Positions 5,781 through 57,549 of a stretch of DNA of 64,000 nucleotides are shown here, in pieces. A program made the position numbers and the translations under genes. Position 1 is the stretch's first letter, and each line of letters starts with the position of its first letter. The DNA is taken from IMG/VR virus record IMGVR_UViG_3300024303_000011; one strand, written 5' to 3'. Below the pieces are notes generated by a model, which saw only the letters and a list, made by a program, of their open reading frames with translations, was not told the DNA's origin and made no database searches. This DNA comes from a virus (lineage: Duplodnaviria > Heunggongvirae > Uroviricota > Caudoviricetes).

Positions 5781-5784
5781 AATA

Positions 5785-6015: not shown

Positions 6016-6090
6016 TGGGGTGTAGCCAAGCGGTAAGGCAGCGGACTTTGACTCCGCCATTCGCATGTTCGAATCATGCCATCCCAGCCA
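6016..6090 (+). tRNA. tRNA-Gln (anticodon UUG), U1-A72, CCA encoded
   Basis: Acceptor TGGGGTG/CATCCCA, anticodon arm GCGGA-CTTTGAC-TCCGC, T-arm GCATG-TTCGAAT-CATGC. Confidence 0.7.
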
Positions 6091-6251
6091 GTACGGTGGT
6101 CTTTGGTAGTAATCACGCACCCGTTAAAGAGCCAATTGACGAATTGGCAAAGTGGAAACTACATGCCATAACTTCCAAGTGTACATAAGAAGTTAAACGG
6201 TAACTACGGTTTGAGAGGATCTTGCGTAGTAAAACCCAATCCTCAGTTTAT

Positions 6252-6325
6252 AGGAGCATAGTTCAATGGTAGAATAAGAGTCTCCAAAACTCCTGATCGG
6301 GGTTCGACTCCCTGTGCTCCTGCCA
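6252..6325 (+). tRNA. tRNA-Trp (anticodon CCA; loop CTCCAAA), CCA encoded
   Basis: Acceptor AGGAGCA/TGCTCCT, D-arm GTTC-AATGGTA-GAAT, T-arm CGGGG-TTCGACT-CCCTG. Confidence 0.65.
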
Positions 6326-36645: not shown

Positions 36646-37731
36646 TTATACATTTCCAACTTTAATTGGTTCAACCCATTGGAAAGTTATTGTGCAATCT
36701 CCGGCAACGGTAATGTGGTTTTCTCCGGGAACAAAATAAACCCATTCCCAGTTGAATGAGTCTCCAATTATACGCATAGGCGTTTCGGAACTTGCAATCA
36801 TGCGATTATCTGCATCTATGGTAATAACCTCGTTTTCATAGCAATCAGTTACCACAGATGAGGCTGTTATATCTTGACCGTTTTCATAATAAGTATTTTT
36901 AATCTCAAATCCAGCACCGACTTTTGTTATCTTCTGCCATGCAGGAAGACCACTTTCATTTATAATACACTGATATATGTATCTATCTGTAATGCAAAGA
37001 TAATAACTACCAACCATACTACCATCAAGTCCTTGATCTTCAATATTTGTTGCAAAGACTTTTATTTCGCGCTTTCCGTCATTTACTTTCACATAATATT
37101 TATCATTATATTTATATACAGTATTGTCCAGCATTTCATATGTTTCTGCCATTGGATCTTTGTTTATGGGCAAATATATAGAATCTCCAATTGTCACTTG
37201 AATTTTAGGATATAATGGTTTTTCATATACATCTGTACGGCAATTAATTACAATCTCATTGTCTTCTGCCGTAATTGTTTTTGTTAGTGTTTTTACCGGA
37301 GAGAATGCATACGGAGATATGTTTTCAAAAGTAATAATATATCCTATGATACTTCCGTTTGTGTTTTTGTACTGTTCAACGCCGACTATATTTCCAATTA
37401 GTCTATAACTAATAACTTCGCTGTCGTCTTGATATACGGTTAGTTCTTCTACCGTATTACTTCCAGTAAGCCATGAGATAATTTTTCGATTCTCATACAT
37501 AGTTATTTCTCTATAATCCTGGTGTATCAGTGTGATATTCACATTCATAACGTCTGTATATCGATAACCATGTACATTTCTTCTAGATCCATCGTATAAA
37601 TTGGACGATGTTGTTTCTTTGTTAAAAAATGATTCAACGTTGCCACTTTCTCCCTCGAAGGAAGCGCCGCATATTAAATCAAAGTCTGTATTGAATTTAT
37701 CTCGAAATTTTATTCGATGAGGAACGATCAT
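36646..37731 (-). CDS. distal tail protein (Dit)
   Basis: 361 aa, immediately downstream of tape measure. Confidence 0.5.
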   Translation of the reverse strand: MIVPHRIKFRDKFNTDFDLICGASFEGESGNVESFFNKETTSSNLYDGSRRNVHGYRYTDVMNVNITLIHQDYREITMYENRKIISWLTGSNTVEELTVYQDDSEVISYRLIGNIVGVEQYKNTNGSIIGYIITFENISPYAFSPVKTLTKTITAEDNEIVINCRTDVYEKPLYPKIQVTIGDSIYLPINKDPMAETYEMLDNTVYKYNDKYYVKVNDGKREIKVFATNIEDQGLDGSMVGSYYLCITDRYIYQCIINESGLPAWQKITKVGAGFEIKNTYYENGQDITASSVVTDCYENEVITIDADNRMIASSETPMRIIGDSFNWEWVYFVPGENHITVAGDCTITFQWVEPIKVGNV

Positions 37732-37810: not shown

Positions 37811-40800
37811 TTATGTGCTTCCTACTCTTTTCAAATTATAATTCAATTTTCTTGTAAAGTTTTCTAGTTGTTCTGTTATAATCTTCTTTACTTCGGGGAT
37901 GACTTCTTTGCTACAATTATCAATATGCAACAAGCTATCAAATGTTAAATTCGTTTCTGGTTTATTAATCACATTGCTCATCAAGTTGACACCATGAACA
38001 GCGGTAGAAGTGCTATCCATATTAGGATTAAGTTTTCCCCACTCAATCAAGTTTTCAGTGATATCCGCTGGAACAACAGTAGATCCAGCCCTCATATAGG
38101 ACAAAGTACCCTGTGGAGTTGCATACATAACAAGCTCGTCACCGATTTCGTCGGTGATAGCCCAGTCGTCTTTTTTGGTACCGAGGGTACCTTTGGCATA
38201 AAAGGTAACATTCTGATCCCACATTTTTCTATAGACCTTTTCTAAGTGTTCATCTCTGTATCCCTTAGATTTATAATATCTATATGCCTGGGATATAACA
38301 TCTTCTTTGGCATTAGATTTTGCCTGACTCTCTGTACCATACCCCATAGCCGTAAATGTTCCTAACGCCGTTTTCAGCGATGCGGTTACAGTTTTCCATC
38401 CACCACCAGGATTATATCCTCCGCCATCACTGTCCTTACCATTGCCAATATAATTCGGAGTAGTTATGGTAAGTTCTTTTTCAATCTCTGCTCCTATATT
38501 TCTTGCCTTTGTTAGAGCATCATTTAGCTTTTGCTCAACGTGTAAATACCAATTAGTTATAGCGCTTTGAGCGTTATCCCACGGGCTCTTAAGGATGCCC
38601 TCTAAGGTACCATATTGACCTTCTTGTTTGCTCTTTGCGTCTGCTACAGCTTTTTCCAACAACTCTTTTACCTTATCAGAAAATGTAATCACAGATCCAT
38701 TCTCTTTTGTAGGATTTTTCCACGGCTGATCTATATATTTCTGCAGCTCAGGAGATTCGGTAGTCAAGAAATTCTTAATCAAACCAACATATGATTCTAC
38801 GTCGGTCTTAAATTTCCATGCCGCACCAGAGCCAGCACCAAAAGCACTAGACAACAAACCAGGAGCATTTTGTCCGAACAGGGTAATTACGCCACTTTCG
38901 TTAATCAAACTAAGCACACCATCATGCACAGTGTTCTTAAATATAACAGATTCGGTCGATGCATTTATCCATGGATTAATAAGGTTTTCGTTTATGGTAA
39001 AGCCTTTTTCTGTGGACAGGTTTACCAACGTATCAAGAACAACGTCAGCATTCGCCATAACGTTCTGATATGTTTGCTCAACAACCAAATCCGTTTCCTT
39101 AATAGATTCTCTAAGGTTTTCAAGATAATCCATTTTACTCTTTTCAAAAGACTCCATCTCATCGTCAAGAGCCTTTGCCTGAGAATCCATCGCGTGATTA
39201 TAATAAGTATCATCTAACCCTTCTCTGGCGTCTCGCAATTCCGCTTCGAGCTTGATTCTCTCTGCTATTGTTGCAGCGTCCGTACTACCAGACATAGAAG
39301 CAATTCGTCTTTCAAGGGTGCTAATGTCCTTTGTCTGCTTCTGGATATCTTTTCTGAAGTTATAAAGATCTCTTTCGGCGTCAAGTTCTTCTTTCTTCAA
39401 ATCAATTAATTCTTGATATGCCTCGATTTCTTTATTCATACCCTCTTCTATCATATCGATGCGAGCTTCATTCAAATCAATAATTGCATCTTCTGCCGCC
39501 TCGTATGCTTTGATTGCAGACCATTGTGCATCCTTAATTGCCTGTGTATTCTCGTAGTATTTGTCCTGAGAAATTTCTCCCGCATCAAGCAGTCTCTTCT
39601 GTTCCTCTAATTGTTCATTACATTCTTCTATTACCTGCTTTTGCATTTCCATCTCTTGGAATGCTAATCCTGCACGAGAGATACCTTCTGCTGTCCAGGA
39701 GCCATCTTCATATGCGACATCATCATCGGACATTAAATCTGAGATATTATTTAACTCATTGATAGAATCATCAATTCTGCCGATAAGCTGTTCGAATTTC
39801 TCAAATCTACTATCAAGAATCTTCTGTTCCCATTCAAGAACCTTGGTTTGTCCCTCATAAGTTTCGGTTTCAAGCTGAGCTACTTCAAGTAGTTTTGCAT
39901 GATATTGCTCATCGTCTTCTCCTACTTCCCTCTTGAGTCGTTCTAACTCTTCATATTCCCAATTAAGCTGATTTTGATTATCTGCATTGCGAGCACGTTG
40001 TCTTGCAATCATTTCATCATATGCACTTTCTGGGACGTCAATATTGAGCGTCTCAAGTCTGCTGATGTAAGATTCGATATAACCAAGCTGGTTATCAATA
40101 AAGGAACCCTTATTGTCAAATGCCTCTCTTACCTTATCCCAGCCTTCAAGATAAAGATTCTTTAGGTCTTCGTTGAATTGAGCCAAAGCTTTGTCGTTTT
40201 CAAGAATATCCAGTTCAGTTTGATGCATATCTGCTTGCATTTTAATAGCAGCTGCATTTCTATCTTCTTCATATTGTTTTGCCTTTTCAGAGCCCTCTTC
40301 AAACGGATTTGCAGAATTCATAAATTGATCATACAGTTCTTGTTGCGCAGCTAATTTATCAACATTGTTCTGTCTGTCTTCTTGTTCTTTTGCAATAAGA
40401 TCATCATACATATCAGGATGAGCCAGTTCTCCCTGTATGTCGAACAGATCCATATATCCCTCAAGGTATGACTTTGCATCGTCTATAAGTTGGCCTTTAT
40501 CGTCGAACTTTTCTCCAATATTCTCAAAAGCAGTATTATATAGTTCAATGATAGACTTGCGGAACTCAATCATTCGAAGAGTAGATTCTTGGATGGCATG
40601 CTCTACTTCCCAAAGAGCGGCAGCAACTTCGTCGGTCATATCCAACTTTTTCAATGCTTCTCGCTCTTGTTCGTATAGATCAATTTTGTCTTGTTCTAGT
40701 TTTATCTGCTTCTCATAATATGACTTTGAGACACCCTCTTCTTCTGCTTCAAGCTTTTCTATTTCGTTTTCAATGTATGTTTGCTGATTATCAAGGTTTT

Positions 40801-43800: not shown

Positions 43801-44755
43801 ATTTGAGTTTCTTTTCTAAGTTGTCATATTCTTCTATTTGCGGTTCAACAGCCTTCTTGTATTTTTCATATTGTTGTTTTGATTGATCAAAGCGTTTTGC
43901 ATTTTTCTTATTTGGATTCTTTTTATATTTTGCTTCTGCTGTTTTAAGCTCATCTTCCAGTGTCTTCAGATGAGACTTCATATCAGCTATGCTTTCACCA
44001 AATAGACCACCAAATAAGTCTCCATTAAAGTGCTTTTGGATTAGATAAGTGCCAATAGTGAAAATCAGAGTTTTAACTAGTCCAAGTTGGTCAACGACGT
44101 TAATAAGACCAGTGCCAACATCAACAATGATTTTTACCAAATCACTATCCAATGCATTGCTCCACATAGTCTGGACAGAGTTAGTGAATAAGTCTATACG
44201 ACCTTGGATAGAATCAAGGTATTTTTCATTCTCTTCCCATGCGCTGCCTTCGGCTTCCATGGCGGATGCATATGCTTCTTCTAAGTCTTTTGTGTTGGAA
44301 AGGATCGCGGCAGCAGTGTTCGCACGGTTTTTGCCTGCAAGGATTTCCAGTAATGCAGCTTGGTCAATGTCCGATATGTCTTTCCAGACTTTGGAGATTT
44401 CGAGTAAGATGTCGTATGTACTCTTATATGCGCCAGTATCGGTTAGAATATCGACACCGGACAGGGATTTAATTTTTCCGCGAAGTTTACTTTGAGAGGT
44501 GATTGCGCCTGTAGTATCTTCTCCGGCTTCTTCTAACTCCTTAACGCTTGTACCACGTAGACGGAGCGAGATTGTACGCAGGGCACTGCCTACAGAATTT
44601 GGGTCTTGGACTACTCTGTTAGCAGCCGCTATAAGTGCTACTGCTTCTTCATAGCTGTTGTTCGCTGCCATTAATGAGCTTGCTGAATCTTGAAGCGCTG
44701 TTGCTATACCATCCGAACTGATGGCAAAATTGTTCAAAATTTCTGTTACTTTCAC
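37811..44755 (-). CDS. tail tape measure protein, 3' exon (2314 aa; coding probably begins at 44734 after splicing)
   Basis: N-terminus NNFAISSDGIATALQDSASS...GSALRTISLRLRG is the second half of the TP901-type tape-measure core (PhageMin_Tail) motif; long coiled coils. Confidence 0.6.
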   Translation of the reverse strand: MKVTEILNNFAISSDGIATALQDSASSLMAANNSYEEAVALIAAANRVVQDPNSVGSALRTISLRLRGTSVKELEEAGEDTTGAITSQSKLRGKIKSLSGVDILTDTGAYKSTYDILLEISKVWKDISDIDQAALLEILAGKNRANTAAAILSNTKDLEEAYASAMEAEGSAWEENEKYLDSIQGRIDLFTNSVQTMWSNALDSDLVKIIVDVGTGLINVVDQLGLVKTLIFTIGTYLIQKHFNGDLFGGLFGESIADMKSHLKTLEDELKTAEAKYKKNPNKKNAKRFDQSKQQYEKYKKAVEPQIEEYDNLEKKLKSLKDTRQSLSDELTNSQAQEEFAAARMAAGYENAAKELDNASANTKKLEGQITQLDQEIINTDVELKKVEKQANATGTAGLTAGQKFKAGFKTAWSSVTKFGKEILKSMAYSMAMTAVLESIAIIGGWIGDAWDAFKPKTFEDLQEELEQTESEISNVESEIRNLNSELDDTNERIEELTSKGSLSYVEQEELSRLKSATAELEAQIALKKTLQDSKQAAANGQAVAANEAYLNTSFMSDQTKTERQEKKGETGEEIGKVAGTVIGALVAAAIITASGGTLTPVALAAGAGIGNMLGGPLGKITGEAIAGASYDSEQTVGEAMDNMIATRKELKKAQDEALADRDTEAYNEATEALTTYDNQMAKHISQIQANYNAMDWETATEEQKKEMMEYADWLSRYSISMGTTGAKSSAIERIFGGAEASQELKDIDQQIKNTIASGKEVDFHEIFNDDSLAETKQRLYDMGLTVTDLKYYYLDWKEAEEDVEGATYNVVQSVSALSDGIGALKDAFGEFKEEGMVTADTLVALYDTFGSLGDAWDNYVDIMATGTSSTKDAQKATEELLEAFMNARLDKGPITDIKDYLSLIGQLQSLGVTNAKGYVDALQRASMISGIGKAVVNDKNEDGKTQDELIRQYTQQYEEQYGITLSDEERLAIEKAITAEKAKQAATEAAKKHSEHEKAVYEKEKAEEALQNAQSELEKVKSEGETKKVSEVGSELNDGGSLSIWSYNGEYYTDGNTEVQYVDPKVVKEAEKAVKEAEEKVGSIDVPVDVNVDDAEKKAKDAEDTYQQALDNMGLTLQIELINAEQAVDDIQSVYDALMDAATEYNEKGYFSVDTLQSLLSLEPKYLTMLMNEQGQLEFNKQAILNVAQARIFDMTQKQIDSIITNASNAAKNGEIDKLDELTSALYGAADARHAFNISGMAELRTNLANPELGLSQAEQDSYYNSIQSQIEAAIAAYEHTISNLPKALYGGGSSTSGDPDENAALEALQKKYERQIENLDNQQTYIENEIEKLEAEEEGVSKSYYEKQIKLEQDKIDLYEQEREALKKLDMTDEVAAALWEVEHAIQESTLRMIEFRKSIIELYNTAFENIGEKFDDKGQLIDDAKSYLEGYMDLFDIQGELAHPDMYDDLIAKEQEDRQNNVDKLAAQQELYDQFMNSANPFEEGSEKAKQYEEDRNAAAIKMQADMHQTELDILENDKALAQFNEDLKNLYLEGWDKVREAFDNKGSFIDNQLGYIESYISRLETLNIDVPESAYDEMIARQRARNADNQNQLNWEYEELERLKREVGEDDEQYHAKLLEVAQLETETYEGQTKVLEWEQKILDSRFEKFEQLIGRIDDSINELNNISDLMSDDDVAYEDGSWTAEGISRAGLAFQEMEMQKQVIEECNEQLEEQKRLLDAGEISQDKYYENTQAIKDAQWSAIKAYEAAEDAIIDLNEARIDMIEEGMNKEIEAYQELIDLKKEELDAERDLYNFRKDIQKQTKDISTLERRIASMSGSTDAATIAERIKLEAELRDAREGLDDTYYNHAMDSQAKALDDEMESFEKSKMDYLENLRESIKETDLVVEQTYQNVMANADVVLDTLVNLSTEKGFTINENLINPWINASTESVIFKNTVHDGVLSLINESGVITLFGQNAPGLLSSAFGAGSGAAWKFKTDVESYVGLIKNFLTTESPELQKYIDQPWKNPTKENGSVITFSDKVKELLEKAVADAKSKQEGQYGTLEGILKSPWDNAQSAITNWYLHVEQKLNDALTKARNIGAEIEKELTITTPNYIGNGKDSDGGGYNPGGGWKTVTASLKTALGTFTAMGYGTESQAKSNAKEDVISQAYRYYKSKGYRDEHLEKVYRKMWDQNVTFYAKGTLGTKKDDWAITDEIGDELVMYATPQGTLSYMRAGSTVVPADITENLIEWGKLNPNMDSTSTAVHGVNLMSNVINKPETNLTFDSLLHIDNCSKEVIPEVKKIITEQLENFTRKLNYNLKRVGST

Positions 44756-45975
44756 GATATATTTTGTATATATTTACTAAATATCGTTACTGACCATTAT
44801 TAATGGCGGATAGTCATTTCTGGCTATCTCTCACATTTCACCATTAGATTATTGTGTGAGATCAGACTGTATATTAATTTCCATAAATATAGAAATGATA
44901 ACTTCAATATACATATTGCTATGCACATCCTGCAGTCGTTACGGATAAATGATATTCATAAATTGTTTTCTTTATTTCTTCTGTAGAAAATGTATATGGT
45001 ATGCGTAACAATGGAATGTTGTATTTTTCACAATAATTATTCTTAATAGCATCACGTTTTTGTCTGTCTTTAAATCCTTCAATGCCACCAAATAAATCTA
45101 TTGGTTCAAAATGTTGTTTACCATCGTACTCTATTAAATATAATAAATTAGAATTATTAAAAACCGCAAAATCAAATCTTAATACATTTACGCTTCTACA
45201 ATCACTAAATGAATATTGGGTATCAAACTCTGCATTTAATTCTTCTAATATATTAGTAATAAACCTTTCTCCCGATGATTGCAATGCACAACCGCATGAT
45301 GTGATATGATCATTATTAATCCTAGCGGGCAGCGCTGAAAACACGGTTCCACATATTCCACATCTACATTTCCACAACCACTGACCTTTATCGTTCATTA
45401 CGTCTTGACATAAAAACTCGATTCCATGATCAGAAATAACTCCAGCCCAATCTTTTGTATTGGCTTCTGAAGCCCTTTCTCTTTGCAAACATCCACATGA
45501 TTGTGTGTGCTCTCCAATAATATCTGCCTGCCATCCAATATATTTATTTCCGCAATCACATATACATTTTACTTTTGTTGGGTGCGTATTTGGAATAGTT
45601 TCCACTATTGTAAGCCTACCATATTTATTACCAATTACATTAATTCGTTGCTTCTCTGCTCTTCTCTTAATAGCACATTCATTACACGTCATATTTGGCC
45701 TCTTGCTTAAATTATCTGCAATAACATCTAATTCGTTTCCGCAATTACATCTACAGTGCCATCTCACTCTTCTTTTCTTTCCGTCTTTAATAATATCTTC
45801 TCCTCGATATAAAACAGTTAAATTTTCAAACTGTTTACCAGTTAAATCTATCAACTTCATAATATCCACCTCCTTTGTTCAATCATTTTGTTGTGTATTA
45901 TGAATATCAAGTCTTTCCTCGGTCTTGACTGTCTCCAGCCTTTAACCGATATAGTTATCTACGGGCAACTAATTT
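44735..45975 (-). mobile_element. candidate group I intron (~1.24 kb) interrupting tape-measure gene, with homing endonuclease ORF
   Basis: Upstream exon ends ..GTGGGT(U) and downstream exon follows ..TTG(G). Tape-measure core domain split across flanking ORFs. Intervening region has stops, own RBS and promoter-proximal ACAAAATGATTG motif (45880-45891, minus). Confidence 0.5.
44919..45869 (-). CDS. homing endonuclease: N-terminal CxxC Zn-finger repeats + C-terminal DUF559/Vsr-like PD-(D/E)xK nuclease
   Basis: VLRFDFAV...LIEYDGKQHF...DRQKRDAIKNNY...LLRIPY; AGGAGG RBS. Confidence 0.55.
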   Translation of the reverse strand: MDIMKLIDLTGKQFENLTVLYRGEDIIKDGKKRRVRWHCRCNCGNELDVIADNLSKRPNMTCNECAIKRRAEKQRINVIGNKYGRLTIVETIPNTHPTKVKCICDCGNKYIGWQADIIGEHTQSCGCLQRERASEANTKDWAGVISDHGIEFLCQDVMNDKGQWLWKCRCGICGTVFSALPARINNDHITSCGCALQSSGERFITNILEELNAEFDTQYSFSDCRSVNVLRFDFAVFNNSNLLYLIEYDGKQHFEPIDLFGGIEGFKDRQKRDAIKNNYCEKYNIPLLRIPYTFSTEEIKKTIYEYHLSVTTAGCA

Positions 45976-48900
45976 ACCCACTTCGTTTAGCACATCGACC
46001 ACATTCATACTTTGGCTAGCAGTATAACCAAATGCCTGTAATGTACTGGTCAATGCGCTCGTTGCTTCTTCAATACTCTGAAATTCTGATACGTTAAGCA
46101 ATACGGAAGTACTCTCGGCTAACTGGTGTGCCTCTTCCATTGAATATCCGAGTCTCGACCAGTCTGCTGTTGAGGATACAATTTCTTTTATCGTACTACC
46201 AACCTTACTAGCAGTCTTGCTTGCAGTATCTAAGAATCTATCATAAGACTCCTCTGTCTCATCGGTTACCTTGCGTAATTCTGTCAATGCAGAGTCTATC
46301 TCTCTAATATACTGAACACCACGTCTTAATTCTCCCCAAATTCTATAAATGGACGTAATGCTTGTAGTATATTGTAGAATAGATTTCATCTTTGCCTTCA
46401 TACTCTGCATAAAGCCAGCAAGTCCAGTCAAAGATTCGCGCTCTTGCTTCTGATACGCATACAAAGCATGAGTTGCATCATTATATTGAACGACCATATC
46501 CGCAACAGCGTGCTTGCTTGTGCGGAACGTATAAGTCATCCTCTGGTTTACAGCATCAAACTTAACACCCTCAATATTGGCCTGATGTAAAGTGTTTTCA
46601 ACAAAATCACGCATCTTGGCCTGCAGATTTCCAACTTCTTGTGCCGTTACACCAGTAGTATCGCCAAGATTTCTTTCTTCTCCGGTTTTTCTATCTTTAT
46701 ATGACCCAGATTGTTCAACTAAGTCCTTAAGTTTTTCTGCCTGTGTAACAGAAGACAAAAATCTCTTACCAAGCGTCTGTACCTGTGCAGCCTGTTGCTG
46801 AATTTGCTGTTGAATTTCAGGATTATTAATTTGATTGTTTTTTACATATCTTTCATAATCCGCATTTAGCTGTTGATAAGCAGCGATATATCCTGTTAAA
46901 ATTTCAGGATTATCGGTTGCCGTCAAATCAAATCCAAGTCCACCGGCTTGTGCTGTGCCGAAAATCTTGTTATACTGATTTTCAACTTGCTTTTTAGTTC
47001 CGGTTCCAACCATCCAACCTTTATTTTTGTTGATGGTCTTCTTGGCAAGTTCACCATACCTTAACGCCTCTTGACGCAACTCATACAGCTTTTCTTTTGC
47101 AGTATCAAATGTTTCGTGCCCATTCTTAATACCATCAACCAAGAATCGAATACCATCTTTGGCTTCATAGAAGGCGTCAAAATTCTTATCACCGGCCATC
47201 AAATAACCGTCTTGCACAGCCTGCTGAAGCGCTTCATCATATCTCTCAATTTTAGCAACCATAGGATCGAGAGCATCCGTAGACTTATTGGATGTCATTG
47301 CAATCTGCTGATACAACTCGTTCCATTCCAAGGTAACCTTGCTAATCTTGCCTTCCGCATCAGTCAAAGTATATTGCAACTTATCATTATCAAAGCTAGT
47401 AAAGGAGTATTCGGAATCATTCGCGCTAGCATGACTTCTTGCATATCCTTCCATCGCTGCACGAACATCATCTTCTCGACTATGACGTTGATATCCAATG
47501 TTGAAGCCAAATACATTATCTGGATTTTGTGCCCGGAAATTCTTAAAATCTATGGATGTCTTCTGAACATTCTTACCAAGAGCTATAACTCTTTCGGACA
47601 ATGCCATTATGTAATCGAGTTCTTCCTTGGAGGCGCTCGCTCCACCATTAGCCATACGGTTCCATATATCTGCAACATACTTCTCCATATTAGCCATAGC
47701 TTCTTTATAAGCATCTAGACCAAAAGAACGAGCATTGTCCATAAACATTGCTTGCTCAGCAGGATTGTCGCCAATCGCAACATTCGCCATAACGGTTTCG
47801 TTATAACGCATTGCCTTATTTACATTCTGGAACGCATTGGCAAGCGCCGTCTCAGCGGTCATAAACTCCTTGACTTGTCCTGTTGCTCTATCAACCTCAA
47901 GCGCATATTGCTGAATCGTACCATTCTTAAGTATATCAACAAGCAGTCTTGTGCCATTAGGCGTCTCTGATATACCATTAAAGGCAATATTATCACCTGG
48001 ATTCAGACCATTCTTAGTGTATCTTGCGGTTGCCAAACTCTTGAGACTATCTCCAGCATTAGCAAGATCTGCACCTTCAAAAATCTTAATAGCCTCTTTA
48101 CCATTTAAGAATTTATCTTTGCTAATGATAAGTTTATTCAGTTTTTCTTCTGCGGCATCTAATTCAGGTAACAACTTATCAAACTGGGCCTGTAAACCTT
48201 CTTGTTTAGGATTCTTCTTAAATTCTTCCGTTAGGCGCAAAAACTCGGCATACTTATTTGTGTAATCAACAAGCGCCAACTGAGCATCCGTTCCAATACC
48301 GAATTCTTTGTCAAGACCAAGATTATTAAATGCTCTATTAGTCGCTATTGCGGCCTTAGTGTATTTATCGCTAATCTGATTTGACCAAGTCTTATTACCC
48401 TTCGCATCAGTCTTTTCAGTAGTAGTCATTAATTCTGCGCCGACACGCTCTACCGTCTTTTTAATTGCACGACCGGTGGACTCCTGAAGCATATCTGCAG
48501 CAACCTTCGCATCCTCTTTAAGCATGCCTTGAACCGCACTATCACGAGTTTCTGTTTCTGTATATTTAGATTCAATGCCCTTAATGCCTAGCATCTTAAC
48601 GAGACCTTGAGGAGTAATCTCATTAAATGCTCTGCTAACATATTTAGCACCAAACTTATCAGCCGTTGTTGATAATGCTTCAAAATTCTGCTCTGTTTTA
48701 GCCAACGCATCCAACAGACCATTAACATCTTGCACGCCATCCATATCCAAAACAGTCATATTGTTCTTGGAAAGCAATATCTGTTTTGTGATTCCGTCCG
48801 CGAAGTCGGAAGCAAATAAGCTTAAATCATCTTTTGAAAAATATGGATCGTCTTCGTTGGCATGAGTATGAACCTGCGCATTCAAGTCCATAACATCTTT

Positions 48901-51900
48901 ATACGCAGAACGAAGAATATTTAATCTTTCCGCAGAAATCTGTTTATCATCACCAGTGATAGAGTTGGACATAGTTCCAGTTGCCAAATCAACATAAGCA
49001 ACTCGTTCTTTGCCTTCCCAAGTATCACTCTCAAGCATTCTTCTGAATTGTTCCAGTAAGTCTTGTGCAGAGTTTGCCTTGCCAGCGCCAGCCATAGCAT
49101 TTTTCTTTGCAATTTCGCCAAGCGCAGACAACACCTTACTAAGAGTACTCTCCTGTGCCAACTCTGTGCGCATAATGCCAATGATGCCGCCTTGCGATGT
49201 TGCTGATTTATCCGTAGGTTGATTATTATCAATTTGAGGAGTAGTATTTTCTGTTTGGTCAGCTACAACCCTTTCCCCAACATTATTAATAGCATCAACG
49301 ATTGGCCGGTTTTCTTGTTCAGGTGTTTCTTCATCAAATCCGTCATTTTCTATACCAAGCATACCTGCCAGATTTGTTTTCATATCTTTGACTTCACTGA
49401 GTTCTTTTTCCAATTCATGTTTTTCTATTTGAGCAGATTCGTCGTGTTTTAGCTCTAACTCACCAATTCTCTTCAAAAGATCATTAATGTGTGTAGTTGC
49501 TTTTTTATAAGCTTCGGCTATTTGTTCTTTGGACACTGCATCAGATGCAGTCGCAGGCTCAACCTTAGCTTCGTTTCTAACTTTTTCCCTAATGTCTGCA
49601 CCAATCTCTCGTGCTCTTCTTTGATGCAAAATTTTCTGACCATGCTTTTCAGCTTCAGCGTCCCAATCTTCTTCTGTGGCCGCAAATGACACGGAATAGC
49701 CATTATCTCTAAGTTTTTTCATAAAGGCTGTTTTACTAGTAGATTCACCAGTAACCATATCCCATTTAGCATCGTCGTCACCTTTATATTTGGCCCAAGC
49801 ACTAAACATCTTGAGCTGCTTTTCTGTTTCGGTTGTCTTTTTCTTTTCGTTCTCAAGTTGTTGTTCGCTCTCCACAGTCTCCTGTTTAGAACCCTTATAC
49901 ACGCCTCTGTCGGTCAGTAATTTTAAGACTTTATCAAGCTCCACACTTTCATCAGAAGTAATCTTCTCGTCGCTTAAAGCCTGATGCAAATGTCTAAATT
50001 TCTTAATCAGTTCGTCGTTACTAAGTTGATTGATATCTACATCTTTTTGATTACGGCCTAATTTAGCACCGTATCCAAGCTTAATTAAATTATCTGCAAG
50101 ATCCTTAACTGAAGCGACCATTAAAGATTTGACATCGCCCAACTTCTTTACTTCGGAACGCTCTAATACCGCATTATATTTTAAGTATTTGGTACCATCT
50201 TTGCGAGTATCACTTGTTACACCTTCGTCTTTTAACTTACCAGTATAAGCAAAAACCATATTGGCAAGCTTATATTGCTCTTGCAAATACTCAACAGTAC
50301 CTTTATTCATGCCATTGAGCTTCTTAACCTGGTCAGCCATTTTACCTAAAACAGACTGTTTATCGAGGTCTTTTAATTCTTTTTGTAAATCAGACGCCGC
50401 ATTTTTAATAGCATTGAATTGGGTCTGTCCCTCAGCGTTTAATCGATCTTTTTGCTTTGCAGACTTAGACTGACCACCAGAACTTCTTTCTGCCTCTTGT
50501 TCCGCTTTTCTTTGCTTTTCTTCGGCAATAACTCTTGCTTGTTCTTCTCTTCTTCTTGCTTCTCTCTCTTCTCTTCCTCGTGCCTTCTCTGCGTCTAAAG
50601 CAGCACTAGCCTCACCACCACCACTCAGCATCTCAAAGATTGCTCGAAGTGTAGTTTCTGTGGCTATATCAGAACTGTCAACATCAATTGAACCGACAGA
50701 TACTCCAGAAATACCTTCTTTAATGGCGGAAATAAGTTCTCCAAAAATACCGCCTGGTTTTGTTGTGTTACCAGATGTAGCTTGACTACTCTCTAGTTCC
50801 TGAGTTGCATAACCAAGCTTTTTGTTGGCATTCGCCATTGTGTCAAGAATTCTCTGACGAGCCTCCAGTTTCTTATCATAGGCATATTGTGCGGCAGCAG
50901 CCTCTGTAGAGTCTTTGCCGTGTTGTGCAATTGCCTCGTTCATTGCTTTTTCAAGCGTAGCAATTTCACCGTTGATTTTCTTAAGACTTTCTTTTGATTT
51001 AATAAGCTTGTCTGTGTAATAAATCTGTCTTTCTTCTGCGGACCATTTAGAATCTTCTTTCTCTTTGATTCTTAATTCTGCTAATTTTTCTCTGTTAAGA
51101 ATCAATCTTTGATAATCTTGTATCTCTTGATTTAATAATGCAAGTTTCTTTTCTTTTTCTTTAACATCAATAGACTCGTCTGCTTCAATTTCTGCCTTCT
51201 GTCGCGTCAACTGATCGATCTGTTGCTGATAAAGAATTTGCTCTTTAATAAGATCATCATTCTTAATATCATCATATTGTAAACCACCGTAAGATAACGC
51301 CTTATCTCGTTCGGTTTTTATGGTTTGAATCAACGTTTCAAGATCTTTAAGACGAACACCGTCTTCACCAGTTAAAATTTCTTTGCGACTTTTTAGTTCA
51401 TCTAAAATATGCTTTTTAACGTCACGAATAATTTGTGTACTTTCAACAGCACTGTCTGAACCTTCGTCCCACTTAAATTCTGTACCTTCAAGCATACCTT
51501 TATCGTTAATATGGAGAGATTCTCTAAATTTATCGACAATGGCCTTTGTTTGTGCTTCAAGGGTTTCATAGAGTTGCTTTCTAAGGTTGTAAACCTCTTC
51601 AGACATTTGAGTCGGTTCAACCTGGAACTGTGCATCATTAAGACCAAGCTGTTCTTTAAGTTGTGCGCGCGTCTTTGATCTAAATTCTTCTACAAGTTGT
51701 AATTTATATTGACTATATGCTCTATCACCATAACCAGCCTTAAGTCCATATTTATTGACTTGTTGTTCCCACTTATCAATATCTGCAACTCCATCTGTTA
51801 TAGCTCTTCTTTGTTCGTATGCCTCAATGAGTTGAAGTTGATATTGTTTTGCGTGTTTAAGTGCATAATCTTTTTTGTCTAGGTCTTGATTTGTTTGATA

Positions 51901-54900
51901 TAGTTCTTTTATGTCATTTTGCACTTTTTCATACTCAGATAACTTCGCGTCAATATCTTTTTGGTCGGCACCCTTTTGTCTTAACGCATTAATTTCTTGT
52001 AATAAATTGCGTTCCTTCTCAAACAATGTACTGTACTGTTCTAAGAAACTTGCGTCTGCCTGACCACGATTAAATACATTTAATTCCTGCTCAAAAGTTC
52101 TTAATAAGTTTTGGTCTGTTTCCAATGCGCTCTGTTGTTCTTTTAATTGTAATTCTACTTGTGCTAATAAAGATCTTCTGTCGCCAGAAACATTTGCAGG
52201 AACTGTATTTTTTCGTCTAGTAAGCTGCCTCTTAGTATTTGTAATTTGTTTTTTTAGTTCTTCCTTTTTTGCAGAATCGGTTTCTTTGTTAAGTTGTGAT
52301 TCAAGATCAGATAACTGTCTTTCAAGGCGCTGTACTTCAGAGCTAGTATAATTCTTATTCCACTTTTCTATATTGCTTGACTGCTTCGCATCATAAAATG
52401 CAACATCAGCATATCCATCAAGCTTTGCAAATTGGCCGGTAACGTTCTTTAATTTAGACAGTGTATTTTGTAGCTTTCCTACGGTGTCTTGTTTTGCGCT
52501 TTCACTTAAAGAAGAATTATTTAATATTGCAACATATTCTTCAGCTTCGGCATATAAACGATTTTTGATCTCAATAAGCTGAGACGCAATCTGTTGTGCC
52601 TCTTCTGTTGCTTTATTAATATTTACTTTATTTTGTTCTTCTAAATCGCTAATTAATTTAGATGCATATCCTCTATTTTCAGTAAGCCGTTTATCTACTT
52701 CACTCTTTTGCGTTTTATATACAGACAGGCGTTTATCTACGTCCGACTTATTAAACAACACATCCTTATAAAGATTCGCCTCTGTGATATTTCCACTTTC
52801 AACCGCATTTTTTCTTAATGCTTCTAATTCCTCTTTATTTAATGCTTGAGCGTTTTCAATAGCAGCAATATTGTCTGTTAATTCTTGCGCAACCTTGGTA
52901 TCGGATTGTATATTTTTTAATAATGTCTGTAATCTATAAGATAATTCCGATTGCTCTTGGCTTAAACCATCGTTACTGAAATTAAACTCCCCGCCAGACT
53001 TTAATGAGGAACGCGAAGTTCTAGTAATTTGGTCTATTAAATTTCTTCTATTTTTCGATCTTTGAAATTCATCATATTTTACTGACTGAATATCAGTACT
53101 TCCAGCAATTCCACTAATACTATTTTCTAATTGATTTTTTTGCTCTAATAAAGCATTAACAGACTTTCTCTCTGATTCAATTCGTTTACGTATACTTTCA
53201 ATCTCGCTCTGTAGTGAGGTAATCTCTCTCTTATAAGTATCTTCAGACCAACCAGGAGTAATTCTATCGCCTTCTAATGGCTTAAAGCTTGTTACCTTAA
53301 TCTCTTTATTAAGAATATCCTGCTCATATTCTTTTCTATATTGATGATCTTGTCTGCCCTGTTCTCTTAACGTTCTACCTTCAGCTTTATGTTCTCCTCT
53401 TTCGTCAGCCAAATTGTATGTGCCGATATCTTGATAAGAACGTGGATCAACAATAATTGCGTCTTCCGGTATTTTCAAAAAGTCTTTGGGACTATTAATT
53501 GCAACAGGTTTGTTTCGTCCCTGAATAAAAATATCGCCCTTAAAATCAGCATATTGTTTTTGAAGACGATTGAACACTTCCTTAGAACTTTCGTAGAATC
53601 TAATTGCAGCATCTTGAAATGCTTTAACTTCTTCCGAATTCGTACTATCGCCCAGTGCCTTGCGAGCGTCTCTTAACTCTTCTAATGATTTTGTATCCCA
53701 ACCATTTTTTGCAAAATAATCTATGGTTTTTTTAATATCTTCAATTTTAATTTTGCCAAAATCTTCTGCTGTTGCACCGTCTTTCATGGCTTTGGCTGAA
53801 GATTTTAACTTAGGACGGAACTTATTTAACAGAGCAAGTCCACGTCCAGACTTAGCGGCACTTTCATATATCTGCATGTTGCCAGTTCTCTGTTGCCACT
53901 CTTCTAATGTTTCCATGGGGATTTCTAACATTCTGAAGAGCTCGCCAATATCACCTTTAAGGACATTCAGAGCCTTACCTGCACCCGTATCTGGCTTCAA
54001 TGACTTATATTTAGAGAAAAAGTTTGCAATTTGAGCAACAATTGTAGATCCGGTTGCATGACCCATGTCATCTTCACGCATCCACGCGTCTTGAAGCATA
54101 GCTCGAATTTCAGAGTCATTCACTGCCCCAGCTCTAATAAGAGACGTATCAATACCGCTGTCAGTTAACCATTGATCAACGGATCTGCCTGCTTTGCTGT
54201 TTTGTGAGAGTTTAGCAAATTTCTTTAATGATTCAACGACTTTATCAATATGTATTGTGGTCTCATCTAATGTTTTAACATACTTTATGCTGCTCTCATT
54301 GGCCGAATCGGTTGCTTCACTTACTTCCTCTGAGGTAGTGGTTGTATCACCAAAATCAAATGTTGGCATCGCCTTGCCTGACAAAGCGGCCTGGATGGCA
54401 GAATAAAATGCAGAAGCCATCATCTTTGGATCAAACGTTGCAGTACCACCTGATGAGCCAAGCACAGCGCCTGAATCCTTAACAACGTTTTCTATTCTTC
54501 TCTTTAACTCTTCTTCATTAATAATGATGTCGAGCTCGTGTCCAGACTCATAGAAATATTGTTGTAGACTATCCATTAATGAGTTACCGAAGTTAAATTC
54601 AAAGTCGCCACTCTTGAATTTAAGCATCTTCAGCATTTCTTCGCGCCATTTCTTTGTCTTTTCTTTAGTTCTATCTTGCATTTTGTCAATTGCAGATTCA
54701 AACTTTGAAAGACCAGACTGAGAAATTACATCCTCGGTTTCTTGCTCAGAGTCTACGGTTTTCTTTTTCTTCTTTTTATTTAGACTAAATGAGTCATCAA
54801 TATTGACTTTAATTGTATGTAATTTCTTTTCGTTTATTTTATCTACAAAAGTATTAATCTTCTTTACAAAGTCAGCTTGTTTAGGTAGGTCGATAGACAA

Positions 54901-55842
54901 ATTAAGCCCTTTGAGATTCTTCGTTAGCTTATCAGCCAGGTCTAATTCAAATGCCTTTTGAACTTCGTCTTCGTATCTCTGTTTTGCATCCTTAGCATAA
55001 TCAACTTGTGCGTCAATAAAATTCTTAAATTCTTGTAAATTTTGCTCTGTAATTGTGGTATTAACAAGAGCGATGCCGGATTTGGGATCTTTTTCAGCCT
55101 GCTTAACCCACTTCATAATATCCAAGATTTCTTGCGCAGCTAATGCGGCGCTCTCCCTTGTGGCACCATATAATTCAGATTTACCAGATTTGTATTCAGC
55201 ATTTAATGCATTTAGCCTCTTAGAAACTTCTACAGCCGACTTAAAATCATATTTTTGGTTCTGCGTTTTATTTAATAACGTCAAAAATTTTTGTGTGTCT
55301 TTATATTCTTTTTGAATCTTTGCAGACACATTATGCACACGAGTTACAATAACATCACCCATGCCATCGATTGCCTTAGTTGCTTGCTTTGTGGCAGTAG
55401 ACACGTCTATCTTCGGCGCAATATCAAACCCAAGATCTCCAAAAGAAGCACCTAGCTCCGCTATCGAACCTTTCAGTGGTTCAATAATCTTGGCCAGATC
55501 GGAAAGCTGCTTGTTCATATTAGAGAATGTTTGTGCAAACACCTTTCCGCTCTTAGCCCAGTCTTCTGCTGGGTTCAATGTTTTCATCTCGTTAAAGACT
55601 TCGCGCATAAACTTGAGTTCTTCCTCAAGCCCACTAACTATTGCAGAGTTACCAGGATTTTTCTTTGCCGCTTTCGCCTGAGCGTTCAAACCGTCCATTC
55701 TTGCCTGAACAACTTCTTTAATTTCCTTCTTTTCACGCGCAGTCAGCTTAGATATTTCTCCGCTAGTATTTTTAAGCTGCTTTTTAAGTTGGCTATCATC
55801 GGCCAACAAATTAATAATATAATCTACTCTAATTCCTGCCAT
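45955..55842 (-). CDS. tail tape measure protein, 5' exon (3295 aa ORF; coding probably ends at 45976 before splicing)
   Basis: C-terminus ...EEAHQLAESTSVLLNVSEFQSIEEATSALTSTLQAFG...NVVDVLNEVG is the first half of the TP901-type tape-measure core; very long coiled coil. Confidence 0.55.
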   Translation of the reverse strand: MAGIRVDYIINLLADDSQLKKQLKNTSGEISKLTAREKKEIKEVVQARMDGLNAQAKAAKKNPGNSAIVSGLEEELKFMREVFNEMKTLNPAEDWAKSGKVFAQTFSNMNKQLSDLAKIIEPLKGSIAELGASFGDLGFDIAPKIDVSTATKQATKAIDGMGDVIVTRVHNVSAKIQKEYKDTQKFLTLLNKTQNQKYDFKSAVEVSKRLNALNAEYKSGKSELYGATRESAALAAQEILDIMKWVKQAEKDPKSGIALVNTTITEQNLQEFKNFIDAQVDYAKDAKQRYEDEVQKAFELDLADKLTKNLKGLNLSIDLPKQADFVKKINTFVDKINEKKLHTIKVNIDDSFSLNKKKKKKTVDSEQETEDVISQSGLSKFESAIDKMQDRTKEKTKKWREEMLKMLKFKSGDFEFNFGNSLMDSLQQYFYESGHELDIIINEEELKRRIENVVKDSGAVLGSSGGTATFDPKMMASAFYSAIQAALSGKAMPTFDFGDTTTTSEEVSEATDSANESSIKYVKTLDETTIHIDKVVESLKKFAKLSQNSKAGRSVDQWLTDSGIDTSLIRAGAVNDSEIRAMLQDAWMREDDMGHATGSTIVAQIANFFSKYKSLKPDTGAGKALNVLKGDIGELFRMLEIPMETLEEWQQRTGNMQIYESAAKSGRGLALLNKFRPKLKSSAKAMKDGATAEDFGKIKIEDIKKTIDYFAKNGWDTKSLEELRDARKALGDSTNSEEVKAFQDAAIRFYESSKEVFNRLQKQYADFKGDIFIQGRNKPVAINSPKDFLKIPEDAIIVDPRSYQDIGTYNLADERGEHKAEGRTLREQGRQDHQYRKEYEQDILNKEIKVTSFKPLEGDRITPGWSEDTYKREITSLQSEIESIRKRIESERKSVNALLEQKNQLENSISGIAGSTDIQSVKYDEFQRSKNRRNLIDQITRTSRSSLKSGGEFNFSNDGLSQEQSELSYRLQTLLKNIQSDTKVAQELTDNIAAIENAQALNKEELEALRKNAVESGNITEANLYKDVLFNKSDVDKRLSVYKTQKSEVDKRLTENRGYASKLISDLEEQNKVNINKATEEAQQIASQLIEIKNRLYAEAEEYVAILNNSSLSESAKQDTVGKLQNTLSKLKNVTGQFAKLDGYADVAFYDAKQSSNIEKWNKNYTSSEVQRLERQLSDLESQLNKETDSAKKEELKKQITNTKRQLTRRKNTVPANVSGDRRSLLAQVELQLKEQQSALETDQNLLRTFEQELNVFNRGQADASFLEQYSTLFEKERNLLQEINALRQKGADQKDIDAKLSEYEKVQNDIKELYQTNQDLDKKDYALKHAKQYQLQLIEAYEQRRAITDGVADIDKWEQQVNKYGLKAGYGDRAYSQYKLQLVEEFRSKTRAQLKEQLGLNDAQFQVEPTQMSEEVYNLRKQLYETLEAQTKAIVDKFRESLHINDKGMLEGTEFKWDEGSDSAVESTQIIRDVKKHILDELKSRKEILTGEDGVRLKDLETLIQTIKTERDKALSYGGLQYDDIKNDDLIKEQILYQQQIDQLTRQKAEIEADESIDVKEKEKKLALLNQEIQDYQRLILNREKLAELRIKEKEDSKWSAEERQIYYTDKLIKSKESLKKINGEIATLEKAMNEAIAQHGKDSTEAAAAQYAYDKKLEARQRILDTMANANKKLGYATQELESSQATSGNTTKPGGIFGELISAIKEGISGVSVGSIDVDSSDIATETTLRAIFEMLSGGGEASAALDAEKARGREEREARRREEQARVIAEEKQRKAEQEAERSSGGQSKSAKQKDRLNAEGQTQFNAIKNAASDLQKELKDLDKQSVLGKMADQVKKLNGMNKGTVEYLQEQYKLANMVFAYTGKLKDEGVTSDTRKDGTKYLKYNAVLERSEVKKLGDVKSLMVASVKDLADNLIKLGYGAKLGRNQKDVDINQLSNDELIKKFRHLHQALSDEKITSDESVELDKVLKLLTDRGVYKGSKQETVESEQQLENEKKKTTETEKQLKMFSAWAKYKGDDDAKWDMVTGESTSKTAFMKKLRDNGYSVSFAATEEDWDAEAEKHGQKILHQRRAREIGADIREKVRNEAKVEPATASDAVSKEQIAEAYKKATTHINDLLKRIGELELKHDESAQIEKHELEKELSEVKDMKTNLAGMLGIENDGFDEETPEQENRPIVDAINNVGERVVADQTENTTPQIDNNQPTDKSATSQGGIIGIMRTELAQESTLSKVLSALGEIAKKNAMAGAGKANSAQDLLEQFRRMLESDTWEGKERVAYVDLATGTMSNSITGDDKQISAERLNILRSAYKDVMDLNAQVHTHANEDDPYFSKDDLSLFASDFADGITKQILLSKNNMTVLDMDGVQDVNGLLDALAKTEQNFEALSTTADKFGAKYVSRAFNEITPQGLVKMLGIKGIESKYTETETRDSAVQGMLKEDAKVAADMLQESTGRAIKKTVERVGAELMTTTEKTDAKGNKTWSNQISDKYTKAAIATNRAFNNLGLDKEFGIGTDAQLALVDYTNKYAEFLRLTEEFKKNPKQEGLQAQFDKLLPELDAAEEKLNKLIISKDKFLNGKEAIKIFEGADLANAGDSLKSLATARYTKNGLNPGDNIAFNGISETPNGTRLLVDILKNGTIQQYALEVDRATGQVKEFMTAETALANAFQNVNKAMRYNETVMANVAIGDNPAEQAMFMDNARSFGLDAYKEAMANMEKYVADIWNRMANGGASASKEELDYIMALSERVIALGKNVQKTSIDFKNFRAQNPDNVFGFNIGYQRHSREDDVRAAMEGYARSHASANDSEYSFTSFDNDKLQYTLTDAEGKISKVTLEWNELYQQIAMTSNKSTDALDPMVAKIERYDEALQQAVQDGYLMAGDKNFDAFYEAKDGIRFLVDGIKNGHETFDTAKEKLYELRQEALRYGELAKKTINKNKGWMVGTGTKKQVENQYNKIFGTAQAGGLGFDLTATDNPEILTGYIAAYQQLNADYERYVKNNQINNPEIQQQIQQQAAQVQTLGKRFLSSVTQAEKLKDLVEQSGSYKDRKTGEERNLGDTTGVTAQEVGNLQAKMRDFVENTLHQANIEGVKFDAVNQRMTYTFRTSKHAVADMVVQYNDATHALYAYQKQERESLTGLAGFMQSMKAKMKSILQYTTSITSIYRIWGELRRGVQYIREIDSALTELRKVTDETEESYDRFLDTASKTASKVGSTIKEIVSSTADWSRLGYSMEEAHQLAESTSVLLNVSEFQSIEEATSALTSTLQAFGYTASQSMNVVDVLNEVGKLVARR

Positions 55843-57072: not shown

Positions 57073-57549
57073 TTATAACCTATAAATTTTGTGAGCCGCA
57101 GAATTGATACATACGGCCTCACTCTCATCATCTGTCAGACCAGTTAGTCCAAAATTCTTCTCCACGTAATTAATTGCCTGCGCCTTCAACTCAGGCCGCT
57201 TAACACCGGCTCCTTGCTTAAACGCCAGCGCCGACCGCCAACGAGACGGCGGCAATATATGAATTGGAATATTATGTGCAGTAGCATATCCAATGGCAAT
57301 ACCCTGAATACGCGCCAAGAGCTTCAGTGTCATCACGTTGCCCTGCTGTTGCTGAATATCCTCTATAAACAGAATCTCCGGCTTATATTCGCCAATCTTC
57401 TTACATATCTCCAATCCCATTTCTTTGACACGCAATTCAGTATCAGACATTTTGTGTAAATCAATGACGCCACTCTCCGAATATTCTCCATCAATAAAAA
57501 AAGACCAGGCACTAATCTTCGTGCTTTGGTCCCATGCCATTACTTTCAT
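57073..57549 (-). CDS. RuvC-like Holliday junction resolvase
   Basis: Motifs AWDQST (D), ILFIEDIQ (E), HILPPSRWR, DDESEAVCI (D) in RuvC order. Confidence 0.5.
   Translation of the reverse strand: MKVMAWDQSTKISAWSFFIDGEYSESGVIDLHKMSDTELRVKEMGLEICKKIGEYKPEILFIEDIQQQQGNVMTLKLLARIQGIAIGYATAHNIPIHILPPSRWRSALAFKQGAGVKRPELKAQAINYVEKNFGLTGLTDDESEAVCINSAAHKIYRL

Follow-up and report, generated by a model that had tools for sequence, protein, structure and literature searches.

A probable group I intron with its own endonuclease gene in a giant tape-measure gene of an uncultured tailed phage

The stretch of DNA analysed here, hereafter the window, comprises 64,000 nucleotides (nt) of the Caudoviricetes record IMGVR_UViG_3300024303_000011 of IMG/VR. 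Between positions 37811 and 55842, the minus strand of the window carries two very long open reading frames (ORFs) separated by an insert of 1,241 nt. We are highly confident that this region is one siphovirus-type tape-measure protein (TMP) gene, interrupted after a GGU codon by a mobile group I intron that encodes an endonuclease, and predicted to be spliced to yield a product of 5,596 amino acids (aa). An earlier note, made from the letters alone, had proposed such a split. The new elements are the fold of an intron lineage that is abundant yet undetected by Rfam, a Vsr-like endonuclease with Zn-ribbon modules, and single-gene TMPs above the longest characterised ones.

The two long ORFs are parts of one tape-measure gene

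The first ORF ends with ...GUG CUA AAC GAA GUG GGU/AAA UUA GUU GCC CGU AGA UAA and the second is preceded by ...GAAAGUAACAGAAAUUUUG/AAC AAU UUU GCC AUC, the slashes marking the predicted splice sites. One follows GGU, exon 1 ending at base 45976, the other follows UUG, the intron ending at base 44735, and cutting at both keeps the reading frame. The corresponding peptide ends, ...VLNEVG-KLVARR followed by the stop codon and VKVTEIL-NNFAISSDG..., were quoted correctly in the earlier note, as were the coordinates. The insert holds 49, 11 and 28 stop codons in the three frames, far above chance, and contains a gene of its own with a ribosome-binding site, again as previously described.

The conserved TMP core is divided between the two ORFs. 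The first ORF covers positions 2-88 of the Pfam profile PF10145 (PhageMin_Tail) with its residues 3209-3291, and the second covers positions 83-201 with its residues 4-141; either match scores ~33 bits. When a 500-aa junction piece is spliced in silico, a single full match is obtained (positions 2-201 of 201, 85.4 bits, E = 6e-24). The full core is thus obtained only once the intron is removed, its first half being the last ~90 aa of exon 1 and its second half the start of exon 2. The TMP profile phrog_4211 is distributed likewise, with positions 432-629 at the end of exon 1 and positions 722-981 at the start of exon 2. The predicted spliced RNA would join ...GAAGUGGGU to AACAAUUUUGCC and encode the junction peptide ...NEVGNNFAISSDG..., such that ...VDVLNEVG/NNFAISSDG... 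would lie within a protein of 5,596 aa and roughly 620 kDa.

Occupied and empty alleles share the same boundary

Searching cultured phages with the junction piece (tblastn) returned 220 records, nearly all of which align unbroken across the junction. The closest relatives in IMG/VR (L002, 82% identical, as well as L003, L004, L006, L008 and L009) are also uninterrupted and read ...VDVLNEVGNNFAISSDGI, which is the spliced window with zero residues gained or lost; at the site, the intron-less L002 allele has the sequence ...CTTAACGAGGTCGGAAACAATTTTGCGATA.... Other relatives (L007, L082-L085, L087-L089, L091-L094 and L096) are broken at the identical codon boundary (query residue 100/101). The TMP cores of these occupied contigs are 33-84% identical to that of the window, and their inserts of 993-1,455 nt contain a homologous ORF. 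All occupied alleles read GUG GGU/AAY at the junction, whereas the empty alleles use other synonymous codons (GUC GGA, GUU GGC, GUA GGA, GUA GGU or GUU GGU), a difference that fits a requirement for P1 pairing, co-conversion of the flanks during homing, or both.

The TMP genes of relatives are broken at further sites, namely 38/39 in L082, 149/150 in L085, L096, L164 and L259, and 235 in L005, where the insert measures 1.5 kb. Multi-intron genes are frequent, L082, L085 and L096 each having two broken sites. Some family members lack an ORF altogether and are only 270-290 nt long (L259, L282, L285, L304 and others), as expected of a ribozyme able to lose its endonuclease gene. Besides such an ORF-less member, L259 (3490-5115) has two sub-threshold RF00028 matches just downstream, and L311 has introns in its TMP locus at 3407-4250 and 8187-8490. 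The 64-kb window contains only one copy of the intron family, and megablast and blastn searches of cultured phages with the junction and with an ORF-less intron returned no match.

A match to Paenibacillus larvae plasmid pPLP3 (L591, NZ_CP020558.1) starting at residue 104 was considered as an intron and rejected. The TMP of this phage-plasmid (1927-4991) consists of two overlapping coding sequences, 1927-3564 and 3531-4991, near the same core region, and the break looks like a frameshift or a sequencing break, not an intron.

The insert is predicted to fold as a group I ribozyme

The structure was derived by hand by comparing family members; its elements and the other features of the region are listed in Table 1. 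The earlier note had remarked that a U precedes the insert and that a G ends it, as in group I introns. Accordingly, all 8 distinct TMP-site introns (8/8) have a P1 of 4-6 base pairs (bp) with a U·G pair, a P10 of 2-8 bp and a terminal G, the P10 guide nucleotides lying immediately 5' of the P1 guide. In the window, P6a is a perfect 12-bp helix closing the loop that holds the ORF. P2 is absent from the window, while extra hairpins are found at P2 in L087 and L091. A single hairpin, P7.1, with a GNRA-type loop, occupies the position of the IA extra helices, an assignment that does not distinguish IA1, IA2 and IA3 without reference alignments.

Table 1. Coordinates of the features discussed (window positions).
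Feature	Positions	Strand	Evidence
Upstream ORF, 3,295 aa, ATG start	45955..55842	minus	ORF table
Downstream ORF, 2,314 aa, GTG start	37811..44755	minus	ORF table
TMP exon 1, 3,289 codons, ending ...VLNEVG (GUG GGU)	45976..55842	minus	Pfam, junction reading, phrog_4211
TMP exon 2, 2,307 codons and stop, beginning NNFAISSDG...	37811..44734	minus	Pfam, junction reading, phrog_4211
Group I-type intron, 1,241 nt; preceded by U (45976), last base G (44735)	44735..45975	minus	
P1 exon strand GUGGGU; U at 45976 forms U·G wobble at 5' splice site	45976..45981	minus	
Internal guide: GUU (P10, pairs with exon 2 AAC, 44732-44734), then GCCCGU (P1)	45961..45969	minus	
P3 5' strand GAUAAC, partner 44897-44902	45954..45959	minus	99.6% paired; RNAalifold
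P4 (UCGG/CCGA), J4/5 UUAAA, P5 hairpin GGCUG-GAGA-CAGUC; classical P and Q	45919..45949	minus	
P6 5' strand (GG), internal loop, P6a 5' strand UGAUAUUCAUAA	45898..45918	minus	
Endonuclease ORF, 316 aa from GTG	44919..45869	minus	
Endonuclease ORF, 313 aa, ATG 45858-45860, TAG 44919-44921	44919..45860	minus	
P6a 3' strand UUAUGAAUAUCA and P6 3' strand CC, within ORF	44943..44961	minus	
R element / P7 5' strand A[C]GACU, bulged C, within ORF	44934..44939	minus	
P7.1 hairpin, GCAA loop, between P7 and P3'; holds ORF stop codon	44906..44929	minus	
P3 3' strand GUUAUC	44897..44902	minus	
P8 hairpin (44877-44896), J8/7 UAAUAUAC, P7 3' strand AGUCU (S element)	44864..44896	minus	
3' peripheral domain: P9, P9.1 (GAAA loop), P9.2 and P9.3 hairpins	44754..44861	minus	
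Conserved 3' tail GAAAGUAACAG...G, ending in terminal G	44735..44753	minus	
Distal tail protein (Dit) gene, immediately downstream of TMP	36646..37731	minus	phrog_33
Minor tail protein gene	32648..36634	minus	phrog_6211

Support for this fold was quantified on an alignment (A1) of 38 family members with less than 88% mutual identity, the L6a loop of ORF-bearing members having been removed in silico. The P3-P9.3 model gives standard pairs in 92.5% of cells, as compared with 67.2 ± 0.6% in shuffled alignments, none of 500 reaching the observed value, and 33-38% when the 3' partners are slid by 1-3 columns. Pairs changed on both sides number 65 of 77, against 52.8 in shuffles and 34-47 in slid controls, and the covariation score is 0.594 against 0.172 and at most 0.115, respectively. 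P3 is 99.6% paired with compensatory changes at all six of its pairs, and P7.1 is 97% paired with all ten of its pairs varying on both sides. P7 is 100% paired and contains an invariant G-C pair beside a bulged C or A, the neighbouring pair being A-U in 24 members and G-C in 14. By canonical geometry, this G-C pair and bulge would constitute the guanosine-binding site. P3 and P7 together form the group I pseudoknot in the covariation model. When no structure was supplied, RNAalifold recovered P3, P4, P5, P6, P6a, P7.1, P8, P9 and P9.1, with 54 pairs of which 47 show compensatory changes; P6 has 3 bp with an AU/UA swap.

Two previous hand models were discarded. The first took GGCUG/UAGCC as P3, while the second ("Alt-1") assigned the P7 5' strand to AGACU in GGAAAGACU, placing the ORF between P7 and P3' and dispensing with P6. 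Both were dropped because the ORF-less L259 shows that the endonuclease ORF harbours the true R element (CCGUAACGACUGCA) at its 3' end and that GAUAUUCAU/AUGAAUAUC closes P6a.

Based on this structure, the intron guide would pair with the last bases of exon 1, forming P1 with its U·G pair at the cleavage site, and with the first bases of exon 2, forming P10. The P3-P9 core would fold around the guanosine-binding P7, and two transesterifications, the second ending at the terminal G, would join the exons into an mRNA for a single 5,596-aa TMP. In relatives infecting the same cell, the 313-aa endonuclease presumably cleaves TMP alleles that lack the intron, close to the insertion site, whereupon repair would copy the intron in.

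An endonuclease gene embedded in the ribozyme

The endonuclease ATG is preceded by a strong Shine-Dalgarno sequence, AAGGAGG (45869-45875). The ORF begins in the P6a loop and its last ~35 codons overlap P6a 3', P6 3', J6/7, P7 5' and P7.1. The nine C-terminal residues LSVTTAGCA with the stop (44919-44950, minus strand), which are the P6'-J6/7-P7-P7.1 segment read as protein, are kept across homologs (codons uCC GUA ACG ACU GCA GGA UGU GCA UAG). Their conservation is explained by the codons doubling as J6/7, P7 5' and P7.1, and the ribozyme and the endonuclease thus share ~100 nt.

The protein matches PHROG families of homing or intron-encoded nucleases (phrog_559 at 6.9e-46, phrog_9084 and phrog_7140), and at E <= 1e-10 a database search returns more than 5,400 proteins. 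The earlier note had announced a Zn-finger/DUF559 homing endonuclease. A putative homing nuclease with Cys-rich, Zn-ribbon-like modules is indeed what we find, but the Pfam label has to be changed: hmmscan reports DUF2726 (PF10881, E = 1.9e-8) and, weakly, DUF5889, and does not report DUF559 (PF04480). By fold, the nuclease domain is Vsr-like, DUF559-type proteins being close structural neighbours. An alignment of 24 homologs (A2) shows repeated Cys-rich modules and invariant S-x-GE, FDF, IEYDGxQH, D, K and R residues. Four residues invariant in the 24 homologs, E198, D230, H250 and D270, come in the right order for EDxHD and are candidate equivalents of E170/D196/H213/D222 of I-Bth0305I. The N-terminus consists of three Cys-rich modules, each a beta-hairpin and a helix (Zn-ribbon-like), a DUF4379 treble-clef Zn finger being recognised in 5 of the 24 homologs; the N-terminal NUMOD/HTH (helix-turn-helix) region of the EDxHD prototype is not found in the window enzyme. 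Activity and target of the enzyme are putative.

Weighing the alternatives

Several points weigh against a spliced TMP gene. Splicing is predicted from the DNA sequence. The structure was hand-derived from the same sequences, which favours it in the slid control, albeit RNAalifold agrees independently, and ORF-bearing members were aligned only after in-silico removal of the L6a loop. P1 is short, with only 4 bp in some members. The overlap of the ORF with P6a', P6', J6/7, P7 and P7.1 implies that translation and ribozyme folding must compete. Lastly, the Rfam group I model RF00028 has no match in the region, either at the gathering threshold or at E <= 10. The comparison with Rfam, which the earlier note had suggested, turned out to be uninformative since the ORF-less members and the CB457P1 intron (see below) are missed too. 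We regard this silence as a sensitivity gap for the intron lineage, which lowers confidence in the group I label only slightly.

A free-standing endonuclease gene might instead have permanently split TMP into two proteins that are separately translated and co-assemble without splicing, as is known for the split nrdA and topoisomerase genes of T-even-type phages. Two long ORFs with an endonuclease gene between them are what this would produce, the downstream ORF can formally start at a GTG (44755), and no Rfam group I match would be expected. We nevertheless consider such a split improbable. Inserting a gene would not maintain ~300 nt of non-coding flank as a paired structure with many compensatory changes, and TMP genes also contain ORF-less inserts (L259, L558). 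The insert interrupts a Pfam domain near its middle, exactly between two codons, and the GTG (44753-44755), which abuts the conserved 3' tail and represents the last bases of P9.3, lacks a Shine-Dalgarno sequence and is not a conserved start in relatives. A decayed, non-splicing relic, leaving TMP broken and the genome defective, is just as improbable. Homing elements do often degenerate, and signs of this exist among relatives: the insert of L007 is shorter, its ORF has 241 aa and its P6a region is altered, and the endonuclease matches of L095, L113, L119 and L126 contain stops. In the window, on the other hand, every pair of the 12 modelled helices is standard and no family-invariant nucleotide of the core is missing, the endonuclease reading frame is unbroken with each invariant residue in place, and the exons are open for 3,289 and 2,307 codons.

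That the insert is another kind of element, namely a group II intron, an intein or a translational bypass, is so improbable as to be negligible, nothing beyond the interruption itself speaking for it. Stops in all frames exclude an intein, there is neither a reverse transcriptase nor an Rfam group II match, and 1,241 nt is, to our knowledge, far above the known bypasses. Hallmarks of group I are seen, namely P, Q, R and S elements, a P3/P7 pseudoknot and a terminal G, and a group I intron within one TMP gene remains the explanation that we retain.

An abundant intron lineage missed by Rfam

The intron belongs to an abundant ribozyme lineage that escapes the curated group I model of Rfam and occurs in hundreds of viral contigs. 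The pattern AGTCTG...GTCAGTA...GAAAGTAACAG occurs in at least 119 viral contigs and the pattern GGTTAAA...AGACC...GGNAAGA in at least 118. The ORF-less relatives have no Rfam match at E <= 1, nor is there any in 20 loci bearing the 3' signature of the family. Rfam does recognise further group I introns in L259 and L311, at up to 79.5 bits, yet in no case the ORF-less family members adjoining them. An insert in the TMP gene of Enterocloster phage CB457P1 with textbook P and Q elements (AAUUGCGGGAAAG ... AAUCCGCAACG) is likewise missed. Scanning sequenced genomes with a 5'-core pattern gave 120 matches, mostly due to chance, the rest of the ribozyme being present in 11 of them. Hosts named among the genomes with the full signature are Thomasclavelia cocleata, Butyrivibrio sp., Parablautia muri, and Lachnospiraceae isolates and metagenome-assembled genomes. 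Among sequenced genomes, L558 has an ORF-less copy at the same TMP site (.../NNFAISSGGIGE) and L586 another at a second site.

The CB457P1 insert (L001, OP172753.1, 7030-8147) is ~1.1 kb long, has classical group I P and Q, and splits the TMP gene ~150 aa downstream of the window site; the gene is uninterrupted in sister phages (CB473P1, CB457P2 and others). The TMP pieces of CB457P1 are annotated as three hypothetical proteins, and its endonuclease-like ORF is apparently in two pieces, a 157-aa ORF and a downstream ...YCKDNNINFLEIPFW... segment.

Our analysis also revealed a second, larger set of ORF-less introns of ~300 nt (L161, L163, L166, L168, L176, L186, L197, L220, L250 and others). 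These have the 3' domain of the window intron (AGUCUGAAC...GGUCAGUA...GAAAGUAACAG), while their 5' half differs and their R element is GUGAACGACUAAGU. Many are located in apparent capsid or other structural genes, sometimes two per gene (L163, L186), and none is detected by Rfam at the gathering threshold.

A tape-measure protein of exceptional length

The product of ~5,600 codons foreseen in the earlier note amounts to 5,596 aa, and this size is exceptional when set against cultured phages but the norm for the phage lineage itself. Lengths of relatives' TMPs were measured from 10-kb flanks around the core. L395 and L396 each encode the TMP in a single unbroken ORF of 5,491 aa, the core lying ~3,176 aa into the protein, and the closest relative, L389, has a TMP of at least 5,265 aa that is still open at the 5' end of the locus. 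The window layout of 3,289 + 2,307 aa matches that of L395 and L396 and thereby provides independent evidence that the two ORFs are one gene. In a second tier of relatives the TMP measures 4,000-4,500 aa (core at ~1,000-1,950), and in more distant contigs 2,100-2,800 aa (core at ~380-600). Among relatives (L389-L467), the distance from core to C-terminus is ~2,300-2,700 aa and the segment before the core ~300 to 3,300 aa; since the former is near-constant, it is the N-terminal extension that varies, about tenfold. According to annotated coordinates, the TMPs of cultured relatives reach 3,123 aa (Tsamsa), 3,213 aa (LW81) and 2,792 aa (vB_BcoS-136). An IMG/VR search with the N- and C-terminal 300 aa of the window TMP found no relatives, and a protein-database search with the junction piece returned only fragments of at most 557 aa, which are uninformative on length.

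The N-terminal region abounds in K, E, A, L and Q, has few Gly and Pro residues and is devoid of Cys. Looking for an embedded enzyme in the first 3,289 aa with Pfam (E <= 1), PHROGs, PDB and RNA polymerase-type motifs, including DxDxD, gave no match, and the extension before the core contains no recognisable domain and no large tandem repeats. Compared with L389, it is 23-26% identical in two patches only, while the core is 60% identical. A helical spacer or ruler that evolves fast would account for this composition and divergence better than would a fused, conserved enzyme. For lambda-type TMPs, ~1.5 Å of tail per residue is established, and by analogy 5,596 aa would correspond to a tail of ~0.84 µm; the predicted tail length is 0.8-0.9 µm.

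The longest TMP with a known tail in our comparison, that of Thermus phage P23-45, has 5,002 residues for an 800-nm tail (bioRxiv 10.1101/2022.12.01.518664). Tentatively, the lineage of the window phage, with genomes of ~145-175 kb and an abundant, Rfam-undetected intron lineage, may build its tails on TMPs of 5,500-5,600 aa, which would be among the longest virus tails (~0.85-0.9 µm) if the protein is mostly ruler; alternatively, the N-terminal extension of ~2,700 aa could be an ejected cargo or a spacer with a new function. We put this forward as a speculation that is rather unlikely to hold in full.

Gene neighbourhood

In siphoviruses, the TMP gene typically comes after the chaperone genes and is followed by Dit and then by the tail-tip proteins. 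The Dit and minor tail protein genes downstream of exon 2 place the window TMP at this position in a tail module. The two small ORFs upstream of TMP have no HMM match and are at most candidate chaperones. Just upstream of them lies a gene for a RuvC-like Holliday-junction resolvase (phrog_827, phrog_159; 57073-57549, minus strand), the tail module being an unusual place for a DNA-metabolism gene.

Elsewhere in the window, a tRNA cluster on the plus strand (1332-6322) comprises 13 genes by Rfam and 9 by ARAGORN (Lys, Ser x2, Leu, Gly, Arg, Met, Gln, Trp), which is consistent with a large phage genome. Two of these tRNA genes (1332-1449 and 1457-1572, plus strand) match Rfam end-to-end (48.5 and 50.7 bits), are not called by ARAGORN and have anticodon-loop inserts of ~45 and ~44 nt. 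Such inserts are far too short for group I introns and have no Rfam ribozyme match.

Implications

What would be annotated as two "giant hypothetical proteins" and a "nuclease" becomes one intron-containing TMP gene, and the same applies to many related contigs and to CB457P1. A large phage group I family supported by covariation has been missed by RF00028, and a dedicated covariance model would recover many unannotated introns; the compact ORF-less members of 270-290 nt would be convenient ribozymes for study. With one-gene TMPs of 5,500-5,600 aa, the lineage may hold the record in tail length or put the TMP N-terminus to a new use. As for homing endonucleases, the little-studied EDxHD/Vsr-like family gains a branch with Zn-ribbon DNA-binding modules that is very abundant, counting more than 5,000 database proteins.

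Comparison with known systems

The td intron of phage T4 belongs to subgroup IA2, has both P7.1 and P7.2 and encodes I-TevI, a GIY-YIG enzyme. The window intron resembles it as a phage group I intron with an endonuclease ORF looped out of P6a and with presumed homing into intron-less alleles. Unlike td, its family has a single P7.1 hairpin and a 3' domain of four hairpins, and the window member is devoid of P2.

The closest parallel is provided by TMP-IVS1, -IVS2 and -IVS3, group I introns of subgroups IA1 and IA2 at three TMP sites in Bacillus cereus-group prophages, whose P1 and P10 are adapted to each site (Tourasse & Kolstø 2008, PMC2504315). The earlier note regarded an intron in TMP as unusual; described in 2008, the arrangement is in fact already known, and TMP genes of the window lineage often carry several introns. 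Compared by published description, both systems comprise group I introns inside the TMP gene, of IA type in Bacillus and possibly so here, at several alternative sites per gene, related introns fitting P1 and P10 to different TMP sites. Both include members with and without complete endonuclease genes and show patchy occupancy among related phages. Here, by contrast, the carriers are uncultured phages of ~145-175 kb and prophages of Lachnospiraceae and relatives, and the TMP is about four times longer. Cluster J mycobacteriophages have group I introns in genes for capsid and minor tail proteins (PMC3706429), and such introns are also documented from phage terminase genes (PMC4299906).

The prototype of the EDxHD (Vsr-like) homing endonucleases, I-Bth0305I, is encoded by an intron in recA of Bacillus phage 0305phi8-36 and binds DNA through an N-terminal region with NUMOD/HTH-type motifs (PMC3239194; PDB 3R3P). 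The window endonuclease shares its catalytic fold, with no detectable sequence similarity between the two, and differs in its Zn-ribbon-like N-terminal modules and in its target gene.

As for length, the 5,596-aa TMP is akin to those of Thermus phages P23-45 and P74-26, which exceed 5,000 residues in a siphovirus-type tail module (PMC10034513). At its N-terminus, the P23-45 TMP comprises a virion RNA polymerase, whereas the N-terminal ~2,700 aa of the window TMP have no recognisable domain or DxDxD motif and are poorly conserved even between close relatives.

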